The translations under genes were made by a program, and so were the position numbers. A stretch of 64,000 nucleotides of DNA from Candidatus Borrarchaeum weybense. GTDB lineage: Archaea; Asgardarchaeota; Sifarchaeia; Borrarchaeales; Borrarchaeaceae. The notes under the pieces were generated by a model. That model did no database searches, was not told the DNA's origin, and was given only the letters and a program-made list of their open reading frames with translations. The stretch lies in assembly GCA_019057385.1 (NCBI GenBank), contig JAHQJS010000006.1, positions 160,001-224,000 on the forward strand, in the 5' to 3' direction. Position 1 is the first letter of the stretch; every line of letters starts with the position of its first letter. Positions 1 through 10,443 of the stretch are shown piece after piece.

Positions 1-1
1 T

Positions 2-1747
2 CCCATTAGCCAAGAAGTATCAGATATTGCGACTTTACTCTCCGACTATCAAGGGATTTTAGACTGGAAAAAACAAGTTGAAGGAAATCTAAAAACATAC
101 TGTTTTTCATTCTTAGATGAGCTAAAACCTGTATTAGCAAAGGCCGACGAAAATGAAGACTTTCTCCGCGACTTTGTTGAAAAAAAGCGTGTACAGATAG
201 AAGAGAGCTCCATTGAGGATTTAACGACCGTGTACCTTGAAATTACTGACAGATTCCAAAAGGAAAAAGAAAGAATCATCGATCATATTAAGCTTCTTGA
301 AGGTGAACTTGAAGATCTTTCTTCAACAGCGGGCGAGAGTTTAGATCAAACAGAACTAGCTACGATGAGTGTGCTGGGAAGCCTCAGATACTCAACTGAT
401 CGCGAAATTCCTGATTTATTGGCTGTGGAAAAGCAACTTGAAACACACGTTGCAAAATATTCAGAAAATTATCAAAGAGCAGCACAAGAAGAATTGACAA
501 ATCTCATGGAAGATTTGCAAACGATTAAGCCTCCTTTTAATGCTTACTTTGAGCCAATCATTGAATTAGCCAAAAAAAACATACACGTAATTGGAGATAC
601 AGTTTCCACTTTTGATATTAAAAATTTGATTCAGGATACCAAAAAAGAAATCGTTGTGAAAGGTGGAGACGCGATAGAGAATATAAAATATAAATTGACA
701 TTAAAGGTACGTTTAGCGATAGTAAAAATACTCGAAGGACAGTATCATCTACCAAAAGAAATCCAAGAAGCAGTTTCTGAATTGAATGAGATGAAAACAT
801 CCGTATTAGATCCCTATGCAGTTGCTACACACACTCGCCGCATGATTGAGGTTTACGAGAAGAAAATTGAAGGAGAACTTAATAACTACTTAATAGAAGA
901 GGCCAAAAAACTAGAAGAAATGCTTGCTTCTCTACTTGAAGTTGGTATTGAAAGTGTACAACCGCATCTAGAAACACTTCGAAAATTAAGAACAGTTCTC
1001 CCGGCCGAAATGAGTGAAATGACAGACCATTTTGATAGTATCGAAACAATAAAGACGGATCAAAATCTATTGAAAGATATTCGAGAGCAAGTTAATATTA
1101 AAATCTCAGAACTTGATCGTAGCAACTTCTTACTTCGAAAGCACGGTCAAGGAGAACTAATCAAGCGATTTGAGACATTAATTATAGGGGTACGCAGTAA
1201 AATCGACAAGGAACCTCTTGAATCGTTAATTGGGCTTAGTCAAGATTTAAATGCAGTTATGAATGAGATTAAGTCTATCATCATTGAGATTGACAAAGGA
1301 GAAAGTGACCAGTTTAATGCATCTCTAAATGAAATCAGCAAATATTACTCAACAATAAAAGAAGTCTATAATGCGCATAAAATGAATTTTGATACTGTGA
1401 TTTATCCCGTTTCTAGAATATTTGATTTGAAGGAAAAATTATTGAAAACACCATCGCTTAGTGATGCGAGCGACTTTTTTGAAGAGATCAGAAGGTTGGA
1501 AGAAGGTTGGTCAAAAAAAGTAACTGACATCCATGAATGGCACAAAACACTTCGTGTATTCCTTGCTAGTTTTGATCCAACTGCATCTGAAGGAGAGTTG
1601 TTTAGACAGGTGGAAGACATCAAAAGGTCGATTAAGGAGACGTATCCTGCTGATGATGTCTCATCTTATCTCTCATGGGCAGCAGAGGAGATAGTGGAAA
1701 CTATGTTAAAGAAGAAAAAGAAAGAAATAGAGAAGGAGGAAACTTAA
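2..1747 (+). CDS. Large alpha-helical/coiled-coil protein, 5'-partial (extends beyond the window)
   Basis: The frame of ORF 230..1747 is open back to position 2 (PISQEVSDIATLL...). The protein is E/K/L-rich with heptad character. Its TAA overlaps the next ATG (TAATG at 1745-1749). Confidence 0.85.
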   Translation, partial: PISQEVSDIATLLSDYQGILDWKKQVEGNLKTYCFSFLDELKPVLAKADENEDFLRDFVEKKRVQIEESSIEDLTTVYLEITDRFQKEKERIIDHIKLLEGELEDLSSTAGESLDQTELATMSVLGSLRYSTDREIPDLLAVEKQLETHVAKYSENYQRAAQEELTNLMEDLQTIKPPFNAYFEPIIELAKKNIHVIGDTVSTFDIKNLIQDTKKEIVVKGGDAIENIKYKLTLKVRLAIVKILEGQYHLPKEIQEAVSELNEMKTSVLDPYAVATHTRRMIEVYEKKIEGELNNYLIEEAKKLEEMLASLLEVGIESVQPHLETLRKLRTVLPAEMSEMTDHFDSIETIKTDQNLLKDIREQVNIKISELDRSNFLLRKHGQGELIKRFETLIIGVRSKIDKEPLESLIGLSQDLNAVMNEIKSIIIEIDKGESDQFNASLNEISKYYSTIKEVYNAHKMNFDTVIYPVSRIFDLKEKLLKTPSLSDASDFFEEIRRLEEGWSKKVTDIHEWHKTLRVFLASFDPTASEGELFRQVEDIKRSIKETYPADDVSSYLSWAAEEIVETMLKKKKKEIEKEET

Positions 1748-3174
1748 TGACATGGGAATCTGAGGAAAAAGAAATTGCACCTCGCGCTGAGGTCTTCGCG
1801 ATAGGTATGGGCGAATGTGGATCAAATCTTGTTGGTGCTTACCTCAAGAAGAGCGCAGAAAGAGCGCTTCCTCCCCGTATACGCGGATACTTATTAATGA
1901 ATACCGATAGGGCAGATGTCCAAAAAGTAAGAACATTATATGACATTCCAAAATCTCATACGCTTCTCTATGGAGAAAGCGATACTGGTGTTGGTGGTAA
2001 ATTTTCGGACGGTTATAATTATATCCACCAATCAAAGGACATAATTTTGGATCAGCTTACCCAATTGGGTTATGAAGGTGTCTCAGGATTTGTGATATTT
2101 TCCTCATTGGGTGGAGGAACTGGTTGTGGAGGCACTCCTGCTTTAATAGAAGTTTTAAAACACCGATTTGAAGTCATGGAACAGAGAAGGATCTTTATTT
2201 ACGTTATAGGAGTCCTTCCTTTCAAAAATCAAAGCAGTGAGGCTGTTAACACTGTTTGGGCGATTACTAAATTGTTACGCAACCAATTACAAGATATAGG
2301 TCCTGATCTGATTGTTTTACTAAGTAATCGAGCTATGCTTAAGCGGATTTTGAGTTGGAGGTCTGGTGTTATCGAAGATTTTCTTTCGAAAGAACTAGAC
2401 ATTGATGTAGGTGATATGGGCGATATAGAAAGACTGGTTCCTTCTACCCTAGAAGAAGAAAGCGCCATGATGAAGCAACAAGAGCAGACATTCATTGATT
2501 TAGTCAATCCCTTAGCGCTTGAGGTCACAGATTATATGCTCAGTCCGGGTGTAGTTGAATCAGGAAAACGAGTTTTCCCTACTACCGATTTGGCAGATTA
2601 TTCGCATAAACTAGATCCCATTATTGTCCCCTGCTTGTACACTGACGTTGGATTCATTCCATCCGCAGGAAATATCCAAAAACAGTTCGAGAGGATCGTC
2701 AGTCATACGGTCAATGAGTGCTCTTACACCGAAATTGGAAAAGATCCACGCGCTGAGTCGGTGTACTATGTGTTTTCAGCCCCGTCCGAATTAGCTCGTC
2801 CAGAATTTGACATGCACCTTAAGGCAGGCTTGCAAAAATACGTTCTACCAGGGGCAGCCATAACTCCTTGCTTTGTTCAATTTACGGACCAAGAAAAGGG
2901 TTCAGGTGATGTTACACCTGAAAAGAAACAAGCAAGCCTATTAGTATTACTTGGTCTTCCAAAAATCCCAGAGCTAAAGGACATACTGTTCGAAGCGAAC
3001 CAACTAATCAAACTTCACACAGGCCCATCCCCCATTAAAAGAGAATGGTTCCGTCGTTCAAAAGGCACTACAAAAGAAGCTCTCGAAAAGGCCTTAGCAG
3101 ATCTGAAAGAATTATTTGGGTATTATATAATGTCCGAACCTACAGAGGAAACGTCTTCAGGTGAATCGACTTGA
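1747..3174 (+). CDS. Divergent tubulin/FtsZ-superfamily GTPase with a tubulin-like C-terminus
   Basis: Motifs GMGECGSN (T1), NTD, GVGGKFSDG (T3), SLGGGTGCG (T4), VLPF, EAVN and TTDLAD (T7). Start moved to ATG 1747, which follows the SD-like GAAGGAGGA and overlaps the upstream stop. Confidence 0.93.
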   Translation: MTWESEEKEIAPRAEVFAIGMGECGSNLVGAYLKKSAERALPPRIRGYLLMNTDRADVQKVRTLYDIPKSHTLLYGESDTGVGGKFSDGYNYIHQSKDIILDQLTQLGYEGVSGFVIFSSLGGGTGCGGTPALIEVLKHRFEVMEQRRIFIYVIGVLPFKNQSSEAVNTVWAITKLLRNQLQDIGPDLIVLLSNRAMLKRILSWRSGVIEDFLSKELDIDVGDMGDIERLVPSTLEEESAMMKQQEQTFIDLVNPLALEVTDYMLSPGVVESGKRVFPTTDLADYSHKLDPIIVPCLYTDVGFIPSAGNIQKQFERIVSHTVNECSYTEIGKDPRAESVYYVFSAPSELARPEFDMHLKAGLQKYVLPGAAITPCFVQFTDQEKGSGDVTPEKKQASLLVLLGLPKIPELKDILFEANQLIKLHTGPSPIKREWFRRSKGTTKEALEKALADLKELFGYYIMSEPTEETSSGEST

Positions 3175-4247
3175 GCGCAGATGAGTTAATTGAGAAATTG
3201 TGGACAGTTTCCACAATAAATACCGTTCTAATTAATTTGCTGCTGAATAAAGAAGTAAATGAGACGCTCGATGAAAGATATTGGCAAATAGTCAAAAAAA
3301 TGTTAGATGGCAGTAAAAAACAAATGGGTAAGGCATTATCGGGTCCCGTAGATTCCTTCATTGAAAGTGCGATTACATTAACTAATAAAACATTGTCACA
3401 GATCGATACCCTTCTGGAAAAACTACAGCATGCAAAAGTTGAAGTTGAGAAAGAAGAACAATTCTTGTTTGATGATGAAGGACTCTTCCAACTCGAAGAA
3501 GAAGTTAAAAAGCGTCAGAAGATAGAGGCCGTTGCCAGCTCTACTCCAGAGTTAACACCTCAAGAAACTCCCACGCAATTAATTGAAGAAGTTGAAGTGG
3601 AAGAAGTAAAAGAAGAAGAAAAACCCATGTTTGCCAGACAAAATGATGCTATCGACGAATGGGATTATCTTGAGCATTTAAACAGACTTTTTGAAACCTA
3701 TAGACAGAATTCGCATATGCTTCTGCCAGCTTTCTGGCATGCTGCTACACAGGAACTTCTTTCTTATGAGGCTCGCGACGAAGATCACAAATTCGCCATT
3801 CAGACTCCTGCTGAAACTATTTATCGTCTCATTCGCACATTTCTTAGTGAAGCACCGTTTGCTCGTCTTATGCAAGATATGAAGCAAAAACATGGCGAAT
3901 CAGAACTCACTTCAAGTTATTTGGATGCCATCAAAGCGAAGGTCGATGAATACTATATACGCGTCGAAGAAGATTTAACAAACGAAATCGAATCTTCAAA
4001 GATCATAATAAAAGCCGAACATGAACTTGAGACGTTCAATATGGGTGCAGCAAGCCTTGAAAAGCGAGTGTTGAAGTACATCCGTGATGTTTGCAACAAT
4101 TTATTAACTCAAGCAAAAACTCTGTCCCATCGAAATGAGTTAGAGAGCATCGTATATGCTGAAGCAACAATTTTGCTCTCAAGATTAAATGGAGCCATGA
4201 TTGAGTCTCCACCGTTAGAATTTCTTTTAAAAGCAATGAAGCCGTGA
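3171..4247 (+). CDS. Hypothetical helical protein with an acidic Pro/Glu linker
   Basis: 358-aa ORF. Its TTG start overlaps the tubulin TGA, with AGGTGA upstream. Confidence 0.8.
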   Translation: MSADELIEKLWTVSTINTVLINLLLNKEVNETLDERYWQIVKKMLDGSKKQMGKALSGPVDSFIESAITLTNKTLSQIDTLLEKLQHAKVEVEKEEQFLFDDEGLFQLEEEVKKRQKIEAVASSTPELTPQETPTQLIEEVEVEEVKEEEKPMFARQNDAIDEWDYLEHLNRLFETYRQNSHMLLPAFWHAATQELLSYEARDEDHKFAIQTPAETIYRLIRTFLSEAPFARLMQDMKQKHGESELTSSYLDAIKAKVDEYYIRVEEDLTNEIESSKIIIKAEHELETFNMGAASLEKRVLKYIRDVCNNLLTQAKTLSHRNELESIVYAEATILLSRLNGAMIESPPLEFLLKAMKP

Positions 4248-4439
4248 TCTTCAAAATTCTAAAGCCAGCAGTTACTAAATGATAGTATATATTTCCTTTT
4301 TTATTTTACAAATCAAAATTTTATACTTATTTTTAATAGAATAATTCACAACAAGGAAGAATTAATACTTCATGATTCGATATCCCCAGATTAACATTTT
4401 ATTTCTATATTGTTACAGCAATGGACTTTCTAGCCCTAT

Positions 4440-5861
4440 GTGCCTCAGGAGATGATCCCTATACCACAATCGATTATAGAACAACTAGACAAATTTTTCA
4501 AACCTAGAGCAGTTGCCGTTGTGGGCGTATCGTACCATCCCGAAAAAATCGGTCATATTATTTTTAAAAGCCTGCTTGAATCTCAATACTGTGGCAAGAT
4601 CTATCCCGTAAACCCCAAAGGCGGCGACATTATTGGCCATATGGCTTATCCTTCAATACTTGATTGCCCCGATGATACTGAGTTAGCGGTAATCACAATT
4701 GCGGCAAAATACACTCCTCAGGTTATTGAACAATGCGGAAAAAAGGGTGTACGAAATATAGTAATTGTGAGCGGGGGTTTTAAGGAAGTTGGAAATGAGG
4801 AACTCGAATCCCAAATCGTTGAGATTGCGCGACAAAACGGCATACGTATAATTGGTCCGAACTGTATTGGCATTTATGATGCAATAACTAAAGTGGAAAC
4901 ATTTTTCCAGTCACACGATCGCATGGTTCGTCCTTCCTACAATGCGAAAACCAAGATCTCGTTTCTAACGCAAAGTGGTACATATGGGGCTAGCTTCTTA
5001 GAATTACTTGATGAAGATGGCCTCGGAGTAAGCAAATTTGTTTCTTACGGAAATAAAGCAGATGTTAATGAGACAGATATGCTTCAATATCTTGCAGAGG
5101 ATCAAGACACAAAAGTTATAGCAATTTATCTTGAAGCCATAGGACGTGGCGAGGGAAGAACTTTTTTTGAAGTAGCAAAAGAAGTCACTCGCAAAAAACC
5201 AGTTGTCATTTACAAAACTGGAACAACAACTGAAGGAACAACGGCTGCAAAAAGCCACACTGGTCATTTAAGCAGCCAAGCAGCCGTATACAATGGAGTT
5301 TTTAAGCAAACAGGAATTCTTTCAATCAGAAATTTTGATGAACTTCTTGCAGTTAGTAAAGCTTTAGCATTTCAGCCACTTCCAAAAGGAAATAGATGTG
5401 CATTTGTTTCCAATGGCATAGGTCCAGTAATTGCTATGATTGATGAGGCGGTGAAGAATAAGCTTGAAATTGCGAAATTACAAGAACTTACGCGAGAACA
5501 CTTAAGAGAGAAATTTCCGCCATTCTTCGTAATAGAAAACCCTGTTGATGTTACGGGGTCTGCAACTTCCAAAGATTATGAAATTGCAATAGAAGCATTT
5601 CTTAATGATCCCAATGTTGATATTGTGATGCCTTGGTTTGTATTTCAAGATACTCCTTTAGATGAAAATATAGTCAATGTTCTCGATGAAATGAATAGTA
5701 GGACTCAGAAACCCATATTGATTGGTGCACATGGCGGTCCTTATACAAAGAGAATGTCCAAAATAATACAAGGAAAGGGTATCCCAGTTTTCGATCAAGC
5801 AGGAAAAGTCATTGCCGCAGCATCTGCTCTTTATCGCTATTCTCAATATCTTTCCCGATAA
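4440..5861 (+). CDS. acdA: NDP-forming acyl-CoA synthetase (acetate-CoA ligase) alpha subunit
   Basis: CoA-binding N-terminus (YPVNPKG), GPNCIG, TQSG, phospho-His motif SHTG, NPVDVTG. Confidence 0.9.
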   Translation: MPQEMIPIPQSIIEQLDKFFKPRAVAVVGVSYHPEKIGHIIFKSLLESQYCGKIYPVNPKGGDIIGHMAYPSILDCPDDTELAVITIAAKYTPQVIEQCGKKGVRNIVIVSGGFKEVGNEELESQIVEIARQNGIRIIGPNCIGIYDAITKVETFFQSHDRMVRPSYNAKTKISFLTQSGTYGASFLELLDEDGLGVSKFVSYGNKADVNETDMLQYLAEDQDTKVIAIYLEAIGRGEGRTFFEVAKEVTRKKPVVIYKTGTTTEGTTAAKSHTGHLSSQAAVYNGVFKQTGILSIRNFDELLAVSKALAFQPLPKGNRCAFVSNGIGPVIAMIDEAVKNKLEIAKLQELTREHLREKFPPFFVIENPVDVTGSATSKDYEIAIEAFLNDPNVDIVMPWFVFQDTPLDENIVNVLDEMNSRTQKPILIGAHGGPYTKRMSKIIQGKGIPVFDQAGKVIAAASALYRYSQYLSR

Positions 5862-5924: not shown

Positions 5925-6194
5925 CTATTCGTTGGCATCTAAACTTTCTAATTTGCTTATTACGTGTGCTAGTCTCTCACTAATGCTTACAATATCTTTC
6001 AGAATTTTTATTCTGAGTTTTTCTGTAGCATCTTCTTTCAAAGTTACTCCACTTATAATAATTTGAAGACTGCTCGTTAAGGAAACAAGCAGTTGTTCAA
6101 CTTGTTTTTGAATATCTTTAAGATCAATTATCTCTTTCCTGATTACTGGCATTATTATCGCTTTATTCTCTTTCAATAAATCTATGTAGTTCAC
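5925..6194 (-). CDS. Small helical hypothetical protein
   Basis: 89-aa ORF overlapping the upstream gene's stop by 4 bp. Confidence 0.6.
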   Translation of the reverse strand: MNYIDLLKENKAIIMPVIRKEIIDLKDIQKQVEQLLVSLTSSLQIIISGVTLKEDATEKLRIKILKDIVSISERLAHVISKLESLDANE

Positions 6195-6760
6195 TGTTGC
6201 GATTCGTCAGGTTTGAAAAAAAGTTCACCGATTTCTTTTAAAGCCTTCTTAACAGATTCCTTCTTTCCGCGGACTCTAATAATATTGTCTTCTTCGAATT
6301 CCACAATAACTCCACAATTCTCTGCTATATCCGATACACGTTCAACTGGCAACTCTTTATCATATGTAATTCGTGCAAAGCCTACTTCTTTCTCTCGGGG
6401 GAGATCCTTCACGAATCTTACCACTTCTTTATTGGACGACTCAGTACTAGATTGGTCTTTGGCTACATTAGCAAGCTTTTCTTTCCATAAATCGACAAAA
6501 TCCTTACCACGTTCGCTTGCGAATGCAAGAAGCATTTCTCTAACTCTTAATAGTGCAATTTCTAACTCATCAAGAAATTCTACATTTTTCTCGATTGCTT
6601 CTTTTCCATAGAGCTTCAAGTGGGTTAATAAGTATTTACTGTGTCGTAGATCTTTGTTGATTGAGATAGGTAACTCGATGTTTTCACGATTTAGTTTACC
6701 AAAAAGATCATGAAGAAGAGACCATGTCTTTTCTTTTAATTTTATTTCGTCAGCGTCCAT
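6191..6760 (-). CDS. DUF2096-family archaeal protein
   Basis: W..L.dL N-terminus, DLR, and C-terminal AE..GVIVEF...V.G.KE.VKKALKE pattern. Confidence 0.7.
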   Translation of the reverse strand: MDADEIKLKEKTWSLLHDLFGKLNRENIELPISINKDLRHSKYLLTHLKLYGKEAIEKNVEFLDELEIALLRVREMLLAFASERGKDFVDLWKEKLANVAKDQSSTESSNKEVVRFVKDLPREKEVGFARITYDKELPVERVSDIAENCGVIVEFEEDNIIRVRGKKESVKKALKEIGELFFKPDESQQ

Positions 6761-6945: not shown

Positions 6946-7473
6946 ATGGAGTCCAACTTACAATCGGGAGGCGTCTCTTTGCCTAAAAGGAAAATAGCAA
7001 TAATGGGCGTAGGAAACACTTTACACAAAGATGAAGGGGTAGGAATTCACATAATACGTGCCCTAGAAAAAGTAAAAAAACGTTACGATCCATTAAAAGA
7101 TGTAGAACTAATTGATGGAGGTACAGGAGGTCTCCTTCTCTTAAAACTAATAGAGGATTTCGATACAGTTTTTATTGTTGATGCCGCTTTAGCAGGAGGC
7201 AAACCGGGAGATATCTATATTTTAAGTCCAGAACAAATTTCCAAATCACCAGATTCTCAACATATGTTTTCAGCTCATGATATCGACCTAACATATACCC
7301 TTCAAGTGGGTAGAGAACTGGGCATGCAAACTGAGGTTATTATAATAGGTGTTGAACCGAAAGACTACACTTCCCATGGTTTAAATCTTTCAGATGAATT
7401 AAGTAATAAAATCACTGAAATAATAAAAACAATAGTTAATGAAGTCAAAAAACTTAAAATGAAGTTTAAGTAA
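6946..7473 (+). CDS. [NiFe]-hydrogenase maturation protease (HybD/HyaD family)
   Basis: GVGNxLxxDEGVG, DGGT, IVDA, SAHD, IGVEP. Alternative TTG start at 6979 after GGGAGG. Confidence 0.93.
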   Translation: MESNLQSGGVSLPKRKIAIMGVGNTLHKDEGVGIHIIRALEKVKKRYDPLKDVELIDGGTGGLLLLKLIEDFDTVFIVDAALAGGKPGDIYILSPEQISKSPDSQHMFSAHDIDLTYTLQVGRELGMQTEVIIIGVEPKDYTSHGLNLSDELSNKITEIIKTIVNEVKKLKMKFK

Positions 7474-7536: not shown

Positions 7537-10443
7537 GTGGTATTTGTGAAAAAAAAGAGCCTGTTAGTCCTGCTAGTCCTGCTATTAAGTTTTTATATCA
7601 CTTTATTAAAAATTGACACAGTTGTTGCTCTACCAAATTCACAACCGTATTATTATGAAGAAAACGTGACTGTGCGAGTAGATGCAAAGAATGACAGCTT
7701 AAACGAAATTAGGTTTCAAGGAACTCATTTAAACATAACATCCAATGGTGAAATAATCGACATCTCGGACAAATCAGCTTTTGAGAACGCCACTTATGCA
7801 CTTTTAAGTAGCCAACGTGGAGATTATGACTTTAATAGATACGGAAATACATTTCTTCATCAAACAGGTGATGGCTTAATTTTCACTATTGCTTATGCAG
7901 ATCTTAGTCAGAGTGATGCAGAATTAAAAGCAGAAACTGCGAAAGGGATCTTTGAAAATGCTTTCGATGTCACACTATATAATGGTACTAATACAATTGA
8001 TAACGAATATCACATTTTTACATTCGTGAATGATCAATCACATTTTAGCAATATAACTGATAAATTCTGGGATGATGCTAAAGATACTAATGATGTAACT
8101 ACTGGTTTTGCTGGTTTACTCGATGATGATTTAATAATCGATATTAAAGCAAAAGATTATGCGAAAGTCGTTATGGGATTTATAAATAATACTAGAGATA
8201 TTAATAGCACAAGAACAAAATTGCGTGAAGTATTTTTCTCTGTCGAATACTTAGAAGAAGGAATTATGGAACTTTCATCAGGAAATCATAATTTCAGTTT
8301 GAATGACATTTTTCATCATACCGGCGATATTTCGAGGTATGAGCCCTCTAATAGCTCAAGAATTAATGTGTATTTACCAACTCCTTTAGAGCCAAATGTG
8401 ACTGATCCTAATCCTGAATCATATCAATCTCTTCTTAATGTAAATAATGGAACAATAGAGTTTGAATATAATTCAACAATTCCCTCTCTAACTAATTTTA
8501 ACGCAAGTTTTCTTTTTGAAAAATGGCCTTTGCTTCTTGTAGAAAAGACCATATCTATTGAAGATTCCTACTCTAGAGGTGAAGAATTTAAAGTAAAAGT
8601 ATCAGTAACCAACATTGGGGAAGGAAAAGCTAGCGATGTAGTAATTGACGACAATGGAAATTGGGACGCATACCTAGATCTCGTTAGCGGAGAAGATCCA
8701 AGTAGGCAATGGCTATCCATTTTACCAGATGAAACTGTAGATTTCTCATATTGGCTGTATGTGAATGGTTCAGCGCCATCAGAAGTTCTTTTCTTAAATC
8801 CTTCCATTGTGAACTACACTTTCTCATCAAATTTCACAGCAACTATTGTTAGTTTGAATGCTACTTCCAATGATGTGTTGATTCCAATAGAAGACAAGGA
8901 TTTTCCATCTTTAATTGTCACTAGAACGATCTTAAGAGCTGCTTATTCTAGTGGGGAAGAAATTAATGTGACTGTAACTATTGAAAACTTAAGTGATTTG
9001 AGTCCTGATGGTAGCATATCAGTTGTTGAAGGTATCCCGGGGCTTTTTGATAGTTCTTCGATTTCCAATAATACATCTATATTGGAATCTCAGTATGAAT
9101 CAGGAGTATATTGGGTGAACTTTACCTTAGATGCTCCTTCTGATCATGAATCAGTCAATTTTAATTACACTTTCTATTCTTTAAATCCAGGTAAATTATA
9201 TTTTGAACAGGGTAACGCTTCATATTACTACAAAGATGACCCTACTACTATTCAATCTAATATCTTATCATTTATGAGTTATCCGCAAGTCATCCAAGAT
9301 CGTTTTTACCATACCATCAATGTTGAAGCAGATTTCAATTCAATTGTTAACCCAGACACTACTATGACTGTCAATGTAACCATTACCAATTTTAGTAATT
9401 CCTCTAAAAAGTACAGGATTATAAACCGTGCACCATATCGAGTAGTACAAAATCAAATTGAAGCACTTAAACAGATATCTGAAGAAGATAACAATTTTAC
9501 TAAAGAACTTTATCCAGGTGAAAGCTATACTTATAACTATAGCTATTATATTCCTGATCTAGAAGGTTATAATTACAAATATGCTCCTATACTGGTGATC
9601 TCCAATACTTCTACGTCTCTTGATCCAGTAATTGCTTTTTCCGAAGTAGAAAATATCCATATCAATAGAAGACCCAATATCGATTCAGTTTCTTTAAATG
9701 CGACAAAACTAGACCGTGTGCAAGACACCGTTCTTGTAGAAGCTAGTTGTTCAGACGGGGAAACGCCACGAGCTGAATTAAGTGTTTTAATGAGGATTAA
9801 TGACTCAGATGATCGACTCTATAATATAACTATGACATTTGATGAAACGACAAACTTGTTCGTTGGCAATTTTACTCCAGGTGCTGGCGCTGATACCGGA
9901 ATTCACACTTTTCGAATTTATGTCACCGACGAACATGATCTAACAGGTCGCTCATCTTATTATAACTTCACAGTAAAAAACACAAAACCAAAGGTAGAAT
10001 GGATGGAGTTGTATGAAACAAACGTGACAGTAGGTGATACAATAAAGGGATCGCTAGGCGTTAGAGAAGTAGAAACTCCCTTATTTAATCTAAATATCTC
10101 CCTCTACTGTAGTTCTCCAAATGTCAGTATTGTTTACTATGGAACGTTGAGCTTGTTTGAATCGCAGCTTGTTGAAAATGACTTCCGTGTAGGAACATTT
10201 GATATAGAAATAGACACGTCTAATTGGCAAGAAGGTACCTATGATGTATACGTAAATATCGAAGATGACAAGACGTCTATAACTTACTATTATGGAGAAA
10301 TAACCGTTCAAAGAGATGATTCGCCATTTTATGCAAATCCTGACCTAATTTTTGGAATAGCATATAACATCGGAGTCATTTTGTTCTTGATTTTCCAATT
10401 TCGAGGTTTTGCTCTTCTCTTAAAGAGAGAAATTCCTTTTTAG
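7537..10443 (+). CDS. Large membrane-anchored cell-surface glycoprotein with repeated Ig-like domains
   Basis: N-terminal signal peptide, repeated V.V.V.I.N beta-sandwich motifs, many N-x-S/T sequons, C-terminal TM helix. Confidence 0.8.
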   Translation: MVFVKKKSLLVLLVLLLSFYITLLKIDTVVALPNSQPYYYEENVTVRVDAKNDSLNEIRFQGTHLNITSNGEIIDISDKSAFENATYALLSSQRGDYDFNRYGNTFLHQTGDGLIFTIAYADLSQSDAELKAETAKGIFENAFDVTLYNGTNTIDNEYHIFTFVNDQSHFSNITDKFWDDAKDTNDVTTGFAGLLDDDLIIDIKAKDYAKVVMGFINNTRDINSTRTKLREVFFSVEYLEEGIMELSSGNHNFSLNDIFHHTGDISRYEPSNSSRINVYLPTPLEPNVTDPNPESYQSLLNVNNGTIEFEYNSTIPSLTNFNASFLFEKWPLLLVEKTISIEDSYSRGEEFKVKVSVTNIGEGKASDVVIDDNGNWDAYLDLVSGEDPSRQWLSILPDETVDFSYWLYVNGSAPSEVLFLNPSIVNYTFSSNFTATIVSLNATSNDVLIPIEDKDFPSLIVTRTILRAAYSSGEEINVTVTIENLSDLSPDGSISVVEGIPGLFDSSSISNNTSILESQYESGVYWVNFTLDAPSDHESVNFNYTFYSLNPGKLYFEQGNASYYYKDDPTTIQSNILSFMSYPQVIQDRFYHTINVEADFNSIVNPDTTMTVNVTITNFSNSSKKYRIINRAPYRVVQNQIEALKQISEEDNNFTKELYPGESYTYNYSYYIPDLEGYNYKYAPILVISNTSTSLDPVIAFSEVENIHINRRPNIDSVSLNATKLDRVQDTVLVEASCSDGETPRAELSVLMRINDSDDRLYNITMTFDETTNLFVGNFTPGAGADTGIHTFRIYVTDEHDLTGRSSYYNFTVKNTKPKVEWMELYETNVTVGDTIKGSLGVREVETPLFNLNISLYCSSPNVSIVYYGTLSLFESQLVENDFRVGTFDIEIDTSNWQEGTYDVYVNIEDDKTSITYYYGEITVQRDDSPFYANPDLIFGIAYNIGVILFLIFQFRGFALLLKREIPF

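Follow-up and report, generated by a model that had tools for sequence, protein, structure and literature searches.

A tubulin-family gene inherited with two partner genes across Asgard lineages: a candidate filament system distinct from the FtsZ divisome

A "novel CetZ-like group in Asgardarchaeota", Asg.Tub, was named by Santana-Molina, del Saz-Navarro & Devos in 2023; its tree position between CetZ and the tubulins is unstable and lies outside canonical CetZ, and its neighbours are unknown genes, mostly coiled-coil (PMC9871819). The four sequences of the group, KXH77455.1, OLS30664.1 (Thor AB-25), OLS26264.1 (Heimdall LC-3) and PWI48967.1, come from Thor SMTZ1-83 and AB-25 and from Heimdall LC-3 and B3-JM-08 (PMC9871819 supplement). 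The same clade serves as an outgroup, under the name "CetZ-related Asgard archaeal clade", in the 2026 papers on AtubAB (PMC13394414; 10.64898/2026.02.15.705738). Here we analyze a 64,000-nucleotide stretch of the Candidatus Borrarchaeum weybense genome (assembly GCA_019057385.1, contig JAHQJS010000006.1, positions 160,001 to 224,000, or G000:C6:160001-224000 in our numbering), hereafter the window, in which a tubulin-superfamily gene (B) is flanked by a gene for a long helical protein (A) and a gene for a smaller protein of two domains joined by a linker (C).

On sequence evidence, B belongs to the Asg.Tub clade, because the published members OLS26264.1 and Thor AB_25 fall within the B family. 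OLS26264.1, titled "Tubulin-like protein CetZ" [Heimdallarchaeota LC_3], matches B over its full length (52% identity, E = 5e-147), and the N-terminus of this LC-3 match is identical to that of OLS26264.1 in the PMC9871819 data. The Thor AB_25 contig is locus L072 of the present set, and the printed fragments of Asg.Tub sequences contain the motifs of B. An earlier note, made from the letters of the window, had spoken of an undescribed filament system. For B this is no longer apt, since its clade has carried a name since 2023, though nothing is reported on the function or biochemistry of that clade. A full-text literature search turned up neither an account of the trio, of where it occurs or of the partner families, nor any experiment on the three genes. 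We hold, with moderate confidence, that A, B and C make up a filament system of their own, built on a tubulin-superfamily protein and distinct from the FtsZ divisome, in which B would polymerise with A and C as its partners.

The operon and its signals, all on the forward strand, are as follows:

1-1747 (+), open frame 2-1747 and open at the 5' end: the part of gene A inside the window, from open reading frame and translation; in full 2721 nt and 906 aa, with the true start at G000:C6:159027 (= L002:11027)
1735-1739 (+): GGAGG, Shine-Dalgarno-like, 7 nt before the ATG of gene B, read from the sequence
1745-1749 (+): TAATG, where the stop of A and the ATG of B overlap by one base, 5 nt past GGAGG
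1747-3174 (+): gene B, 475 aa, tubulin/FtsZ-superfamily GTPase
3160-3164 (+): GGTGA, Shine-Dalgarno-like, 6 nt ahead of the gene C start codon, TTG
3171-3174 (+): TTGA, where the TTG start of gene C overlaps the stop of gene B
3171-4247 (+): gene C, 358 aa
4295-4307 (+): T-rich tract CCTTTTTTATTTT, 48 nt past the stop of gene C

The two stop/start overlaps with their Shine-Dalgarno-like motifs, which the earlier note had described as linking the three genes, are read directly in the sequence. Its placement of the operon start to the left of the window agrees with the upstream DNA, in which the start codon of gene A lies 973 nt left of the window. Because this start is preceded by a 360-nt gap and then by a divergently transcribed gene, the operon consists of exactly three genes, A-B-C. 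The divergent gene (L002:9724-10665, minus strand, 335-1276 nt left of the window) encodes an N-terminal helix-turn-helix fused to a ThiN thiamine-phosphate synthase domain (PF10120, 1.9e-52). At the other end, an AT-rich gap of 190 nt separates gene C from the next gene. Oligo-T is an established termination signal for archaeal RNA polymerase, and the tract at 4295-4307 is for this reason a candidate terminator and the likely end of the operon. An Rfam search in and around the operon found no RNA families. All three genes are conserved as proteins in >100 species and are therefore real.

The order of the trio was compared in 12 genomes from a genome search and in 80 more loci whose organism is named (Thor, Hermod, Heimdall/Hod, Borr/Sif and Asgardarchaeum abyssi); distant A and C orthologues were taken from the loci around B, as word-index searches gave close relatives only (7 and 12). 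A-B-C stand in the same order in the 12 search-derived genomes, except that one of them showed no C in the stretch compared; there the phylum search places a C match ~8 kb downstream on the same contig. In the larger set, C follows B in 75/75 loci with room for it and A precedes B in at least 65/66. A first scoring had given 61/66; of the five apparent losses of A, three are runs of N, and L102 has the C-terminal half of A further upstream. At L105, A was not found upstream of B. Both L102 and L105 carry another gene immediately upstream of B (L102:2145-5753, plus strand, 1202 aa; L105:3301-5622, plus strand, 773 aa). These two genes are 61% identical to each other and contain an internal repeat, have no Pfam family and no similarity to A, and in L102 the gene lies between A and B. 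Gaps within the trio are mostly 0-20 nt, and the next downstream gene is 70-300 nt off. The neighbourhood check that the earlier note had proposed thus came out in its favour, with the A-B-C order kept in essentially all 80 loci.

We further surveyed 400 Asgard species genomes with profiles of B and C. The B profile was found in 126/400 and the C profile in 123/400, in the same families: f7-type (76 and 74 of 89), f21 (21 and 20 of 22), f12 (15 and 16 of 19), and f15 and f1 (4/4 each for both). Both were missing from the same families as well (f10, 0/135; f5, 0/31; f3, 0/4), and the few mismatches between the two are fragments at contig ends. On these counts, about one Asgard species in three has inherited the trio as a set. 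An exhaustive profile search among 1.84 billion proteins returned 53 representative clusters of C and found none outside the tubulin-gene context; the sole divergent cluster with a named source is from Hodarchaeales, and its locus tag adjoins that of the tubulin gene.

Relative to the proteins of the window, B retains ~60% identity in Thor, ~52% in Hod and ~41% in the most distant group (f15/f9), compared to ~28%, ~22% and ~21% for C and ~27%, ~20% and ~20% for A. The results fit one inherited unit, made up of a slowly evolving, putatively polymer-type B and two faster-evolving partners. Comparative genomics strongly backs the reading of the neighbours as dedicated partners (75/75, at least 65/66, gaps mostly 0-20 nt, B and C in the same genomes and families), whereas physical contact and a specific role as scaffold, anchor, microtubule-associated protein (MAP) or nucleator are inferred.

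The features of B on which its assignment depends are these:

1789-2343 (+): GTPase domain, residues 15-199, from the Pfam stretch and the genome search
2110-2130 (+): GGGTGCG tubulin signature, T4 loop, residues 122-128, unchanged across a diverse set of 19 orthologues
2581-2598 (+): TTDLAD, residues 279-284, candidate T7 loop; both D281 and D284 are invariant, and the spacing follows the NxDxxD pattern of FtsZ

B matches Pfam PF00091 with 63.9 bits (cut-off 33), and the domain is found in 19/19 orthologues of an alignment that reaches down to 40% identity and covers several lineages. In its GGGTGCG, Cys replaces the Ser/Thr of the GGGTG(S/T)G signature. TTDLAD is assigned as the probable T7 loop because its position and pattern match. 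Also invariant in the alignment are the T1 glycines, GVGG (T3), a PF..Q..E stretch and SN (T6), and the T1/T3/T5/T6 residues are kept across lineages. B is most conserved across the GTPase domain and residues 401-440, a C-terminal helical region specific to the family. Conservation drops in a ~45-residue insertion before the putative H7 and in the tail, whose acidic character in the B of the window is common, within the alignment, only to a close Sif/Borr relative. The closest public records of B (91-98% identity) come from metagenome-assembled genomes labelled Candidatus Borrarchaeum yapensis, Borrarchaeota and Sifarchaeum marinoarchaea, which places the host among Asgard archaea of Sif/Borrarchaeia type.

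Among solved proteins, the three best matches to the B profile are CetZ1 (2.8e-13), Methanosaeta CetZ (1.3e-8) and CetZ2 (8.8e-8), and tubulins follow with beta-tubulin at 8e-7, gamma-tubulin at 3.5e-6 and OdinTubulin at 1.2e-5; FtsZ is absent from the best 60 solved matches. An identity as FtsZ was rejected, the TIGR00065 equivalog giving 24 bits against a cut-off of 295.2. A eukaryote-type tubulin was rejected too, with tubulins at 8e-7 or weaker against 2.8e-13 for CetZ1 and with Tubulin_C not matched. None of the C-terminal domains CetZ_C (PF21011), FtsZ_C and Tubulin_C matched any of the 19/19 members in a test that allowed E-values up to 10, although the HMMER filters drop most matches above ~0.1. 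The language-model neighbours of B are CetZ-type clusters, with TubZ-like clusters among them.

B is not the only tubulin-superfamily gene of its host. The genome (4.18 Mb in 8 contigs, completeness 100, contamination 7) holds two further PF00091 genes, on contigs C5 and C4, which score at FtsZ level (164 and 141 bits on PF00091), and SepF is encoded on contig C4. The remark of the earlier note that neither sepF nor other division genes flank the operon is therefore accurate for the genome as for the window: with FtsZ1, FtsZ2 and SepF located on other contigs, B is a third paralogue unlinked to division genes. A and C are each present in a single copy. Since two FtsZ genes and SepF are encoded elsewhere, the trio is unlikely to be the core divisome.

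Protein A had been estimated at no fewer than 581 aa, which holds as a lower bound, the full protein having 906 aa; family members range from 900 to 1170 aa. It had also been called a coiled-coil protein. The helical part of that description stands, but the confident AlphaFold2 model (alignment-based; mean predicted local distance difference test, pLDDT, 83.9; predicted template modelling score, pTM, 0.39) is all-alpha, with ~30 helices in consecutive bundles rather than a single long coiled coil. The pTM would suit an elongated molecule, and the model is that of a rod built of helical bundles. Residues are conserved evenly from end to end, slightly more so over the final 150, and internal similarity is weak (segments 330-455 and 456-592, HHalign probability 76%).

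Searches with A gave little outside its own family. No family was found in Pfam, NCBIfam, PADLOC or PHROGs, where two weak phage-tail rows had no passing stretch, and the profile drew only coiled-coil noise from PDB sequences, such as apolipoprotein and spike heptad-repeat segments. Foldseek with the model placed a dynein tail first (E = 0.012, probability 0.41), followed by PRC1 and a chain of the gamma-tubulin ring complex, none of them significant; VIA returned generic helical bundles, and ESM Atlas returned A's own Thor orthologue cluster alone. EzrA came up in VIA only at Z 7.4 with a root-mean-square deviation of 21.6, which is meaningless as a match, and the comparison with spectrin repeats and EzrA, made with the full-length model, gave generic helical-bundle rows. 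A, B and C are all acidic (isoelectric point, pI, 4.8-5.1), and neither A nor B has a transmembrane-like stretch. At 41 Thor-type loci (among L040-L095) the immediate upstream neighbour of A is one and the same gene of ~638 aa, on the other strand and in head-to-head orientation; this neighbour is specific to Thor, given that the window has the helix-turn-helix-ThiN gene at that position.

Protein C divides into three parts, with boundaries from the AlphaFold2 model:

3171-3440 (+): three-helix bundle, ~residues 1-90, pLDDT ~70
3441-3620 (+): acidic disordered linker, ~residues 91-150, pLDDT <50, unconserved
3621-4244 (+): all-alpha C-terminal domain, residues 150/151-358, pLDDT >90

The two-domain architecture with an acidic linker that had been read from the window is upheld by the model and the alignment, the linker being unconserved and modelled at low confidence over residues ~89-145, and the invariant residues of C sit in the confidently folded C-terminal domain. 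As for A, no family was found in Pfam, NCBIfam, PADLOC or PHROGs. The C profile gave coiled-coil noise and no significant match among PDB sequences, Foldseek with the model found nothing in the PDB at E <= 0.001, and ESM Atlas gave template modelling scores <= 0.27. The VIA lists were taken up by hits of a generic kind on the N-terminal bundle (BAG, spectrin and Not5 types; Z 9-12.7), so that the C-terminal domain was barely probed. The trio would add two protein families and possibly one new fold. In a complex prediction of B with C residues 145-358 (custom alignments), the interaction prediction scores from aligned errors (ipSAE) were 0.00 and 0.00; this run, made without controls, is no evidence on binding either way.

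The first helix of C differs between lineages. Its maximum over 19 residues on the Kyte-Doolittle scale is 1.8-2.35 in Hod/Heimdall, 1.2-1.5 in Thor and 1.19 in the window. As the Hod/Heimdall helix is as hydrophobic as a transmembrane segment, C may attach to the membrane through it in some lineages, such as these. The Hod/Heimdall forms of C (L098, L100, L103, L106-L109, L112 and L113) also have a longer N-terminus, with an FW..RGN motif ahead of the hydrophobic helix; this region covers the first ~75 residues of C (e.g. L113:7378-7600).

Taken together, these observations suggest the following mechanism. B would bind GTP and polymerise head to tail, with the T7 acids D281 and D284 of one subunit completing the GTPase site of the next, giving dynamic filaments; polymerisation is proposed because the conserved acidic pair has a role only between stacked subunits. 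A, made together with B from a coupled message, would act as a scaffold or cross-linker along or between the filaments. C would be a bipartite adaptor: its conserved C-terminal domain would dock on B or A, and the flexible linker would lead from there to the N-terminal three-helix bundle, which would hold on to something else, in some lineages perhaps the membrane. What the system would do, by analogy to CetZ, is control the shape of the cell or its internal organisation. That the trio works outside core division is the likelier reading, because FtsZ1, FtsZ2 and SepF are present and unlinked and because two thirds of Asgard genomes are without the trio.

Several points weigh against such a system. 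Polymerisation, physical interaction and the cellular role are all inferred for what is a predicted filament system, and the roles suggested for A and C derive from their architecture, the fold and sequence matches being uninformative. Two thirds of the sampled Asgard genomes do without the module, so basic cell biology in Asgard archaea does not depend on it. In some Hodarchaeales there is a second A-B pair that lacks C, so that C is not obligatory for every A-B pair. In the window itself the first helix of C, at 1.19, stays below the usual transmembrane threshold, and membrane anchoring is therefore unsupported for this organism. A bolder version, in which the trio is a membrane-attached, GTP-driven skeleton that shapes Asgard cells or their protrusions, with C as the tether and A as distant kin of the rods associated with eukaryotic microtubules, would in our view be a long shot; the kinship is suggested by dynein tail and PRC1 as the top, non-significant Foldseek rows. 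Were it true, this would be a third Asgard tubulin lineage with MAP-like partners of its own, older than or parallel to the pairing of tubulin with MAPs in eukaryotes.

Other explanations share part of this evidence. The three proteins might cooperate with B acting not as a filament but as a GTP switch or assembly factor in a discrete A-B-C complex, as with some divergent tubulin relatives that form no long polymers. The C-terminal half of B without a match to CetZ_C, FtsZ_C or Tubulin_C (19/19), its lineage-specific ~45-residue insertion before the putative H7 and its conserved family-specific C-terminal helical region all lend themselves to this account. We nevertheless consider it unlikely, as the T7 acidic pair, relevant only in head-to-tail stacks, is invariant family-wide, and as every characterised family near B (CetZ, tubulin and TubZ) polymerises, to our knowledge. 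The module might instead serve FtsZ-based division as an accessory. B is paralogous to FtsZ, and the division partners known for bacterial and archaeal FtsZ include helical rods such as EzrA and linker tethers such as ZipA and SepF. Against this stand the score of B on the FtsZ equivalog (24 bits, cut-off 295.2), the encoding of FtsZ1, FtsZ2 and SepF elsewhere in the genome and the survey, in which the module was not found in 274/400 Asgard genomes, with 0/135 in the largest family; an accessory role in division is improbable in this light.

It is also conceivable, if decidedly improbable, that A, B and C share conserved synteny without physical partnership, A and C acting in another process. 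Their interaction with B is a predicted one, and the acdA-like gene, an unrelated metabolic gene, is likewise retained after C in Thor and Sif, so synteny alone can persist. That gene, however, lies 70-300 nt off, whereas A, B and C overlap or are 0-20 nt apart in nearly all lineages, and the phyletic patterns of B and C match, with C not found outside this context. A module for DNA segregation of the TubZRC type, in which B filaments would move chromosomes or an element and C or A would be the DNA adaptor, we regard as very improbable. Type III partition operons typically pair a tubulin-family protein with adaptors, and TubZ-like clusters occur among the language-model neighbours of B. Yet Pfam and NCBIfam searches found no helix-turn-helix or other DNA-binding families in A or C, all three proteins are acidic (pI 4.8-5.1), and the best solved matches of B are CetZ and not TubZ. 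Moreover, the module sits on the chromosome between stable flanks, is passed on vertically and has no matches to phage or defence families.

Some Asgard loci vary this arrangement. The A-B pair lacking C is a second pair of Hodarchaeales type, at L118:6920-11680 (minus strand), L119:3060-7831 (plus strand) and L120:1055-5827 (plus strand). It is divergent (A ~1141 aa, B ~444 aa), is preceded by a gene of 311 aa and is followed by a convergent gene for a 740-aa protein with a RagA/Gtr1-type GTPase domain (PF04670, 8e-30). The 311-aa gene was considered as a relative of C and rejected (HHalign probability 0.1). Downstream of C in the window, at 4440-5861 (+), lies the acdA-like gene, which encodes an ADP-forming acetyl-CoA synthetase of alpha type with CoA_binding_2, Succ_CoA_lig and Ligase_CoA_2 domains. 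Its family follows C on the same strand in 55/81 loci, in Thor and Sif/Borr and not in Hod/Heimdall. Lying 70-210 nt away rather than overlapping, it looks like retained synteny and not like a fourth member of the operon.

Two further features of the window lie beyond the operon and its flanking gene:

5925-6760 (-) and 6946-7473 (+): a cluster with a DUF2096 protein (four-helix bundle and KH-like domain), then an 89-aa open reading frame with overlapping stop and start, and, divergent to these, a HycI-type hydrogenase maturation protease
7537-10443 (+): a 968-aa protein with a hydrophobic signal-like N-terminus, a hydrophobic C-terminal segment and many N-x-S/T sequons, from which it is probably a glycosylated surface protein

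Among the systems described to date, CetZ comes closest. CetZ1 and CetZ2 of Haloferax volcanii and the CetZ of Methanosaeta thermophila (PDB 4b46, 4b45 and 3zid) are the best solved matches to B over the GTPase domain, and like B they are archaeal tubulin paralogues outside division. The PKIPEL helix of B resembles PRIKEL in the C-terminal helix of CetZ1 only faintly and not significantly. B differs in lacking a CetZ_C match (19/19), in being ~80 residues longer, and in its insertion before H7 and its own C-terminal region. CetZ, moreover, is euryarchaeal and has another gene context, and published trees set Asg.Tub outside canonical CetZ. OdinTubulin and AtubA/B/C share the superfamily and the phylum of B, and unknown coiled-coil genes stand beside OdinTubulin as well, but B matches OdinTubulin and AtubB far more weakly than CetZ, leaves Tubulin_C unmatched and has unrelated neighbour genes.

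For the partners, the likeness to known systems is one of organisation. BtubA/B-BtubC of Prosthecobacter and TubZ-TubR(-TubY) likewise encode a tubulin-family polymer with dedicated non-tubulin accessory proteins in one operon. Their partners are not homologous to those described here, A and C having no TPR or winged-helix family, and in place of the BtubA/B heterodimer pair there is a single tubulin-family gene, which is chromosomal and Asgard-wide. Membership in TubZRC was rejected, as no TubR-like winged-helix adaptor was found and A and C are acidic. The resemblance to the FtsZ partners EzrA, ZipA and SepF is architectural only: EzrA is a spectrin-like helical rod, as A is predicted to be a rod of repeated helical bundles, and ZipA and SepF combine an anchor, a flexible linker and a polymer-binding domain, as the disordered linker of C joins an end domain, with a strongly hydrophobic first helix in Hod orthologues, to a conserved globular one. 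A and C have no sequence or significant structural similarity to these proteins, and B is not FtsZ.

Compared to the study that named Asg.Tub from four sequences, in which the trio, its distribution and its partner families are undefined, the present analysis adds the conserved A-B-C trio with its Asgard distribution and two partner families, and extends it to the Sif/Borrarchaeia lineage. It is also new that C, searched for among 1.84 billion proteins, is confined to the trio context, that its N-terminal helix is hydrophobic in Hod, that Hodarchaeales have a second A-B pair without C and that the acdA-like gene is retained after C in Thor and Sif. A third tubulin-superfamily lineage, used until now only as an outgroup in trees, is inherited with two private partners across Asgard lineages. 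The trio offers a testable three-protein system, with one polymer candidate and two partner candidates of defined domains, and could show how archaeal tubulin relatives recruit accessory proteins. We rate it as a variant of a known theme, a tubulin-family polymer with operon-encoded accessory proteins.

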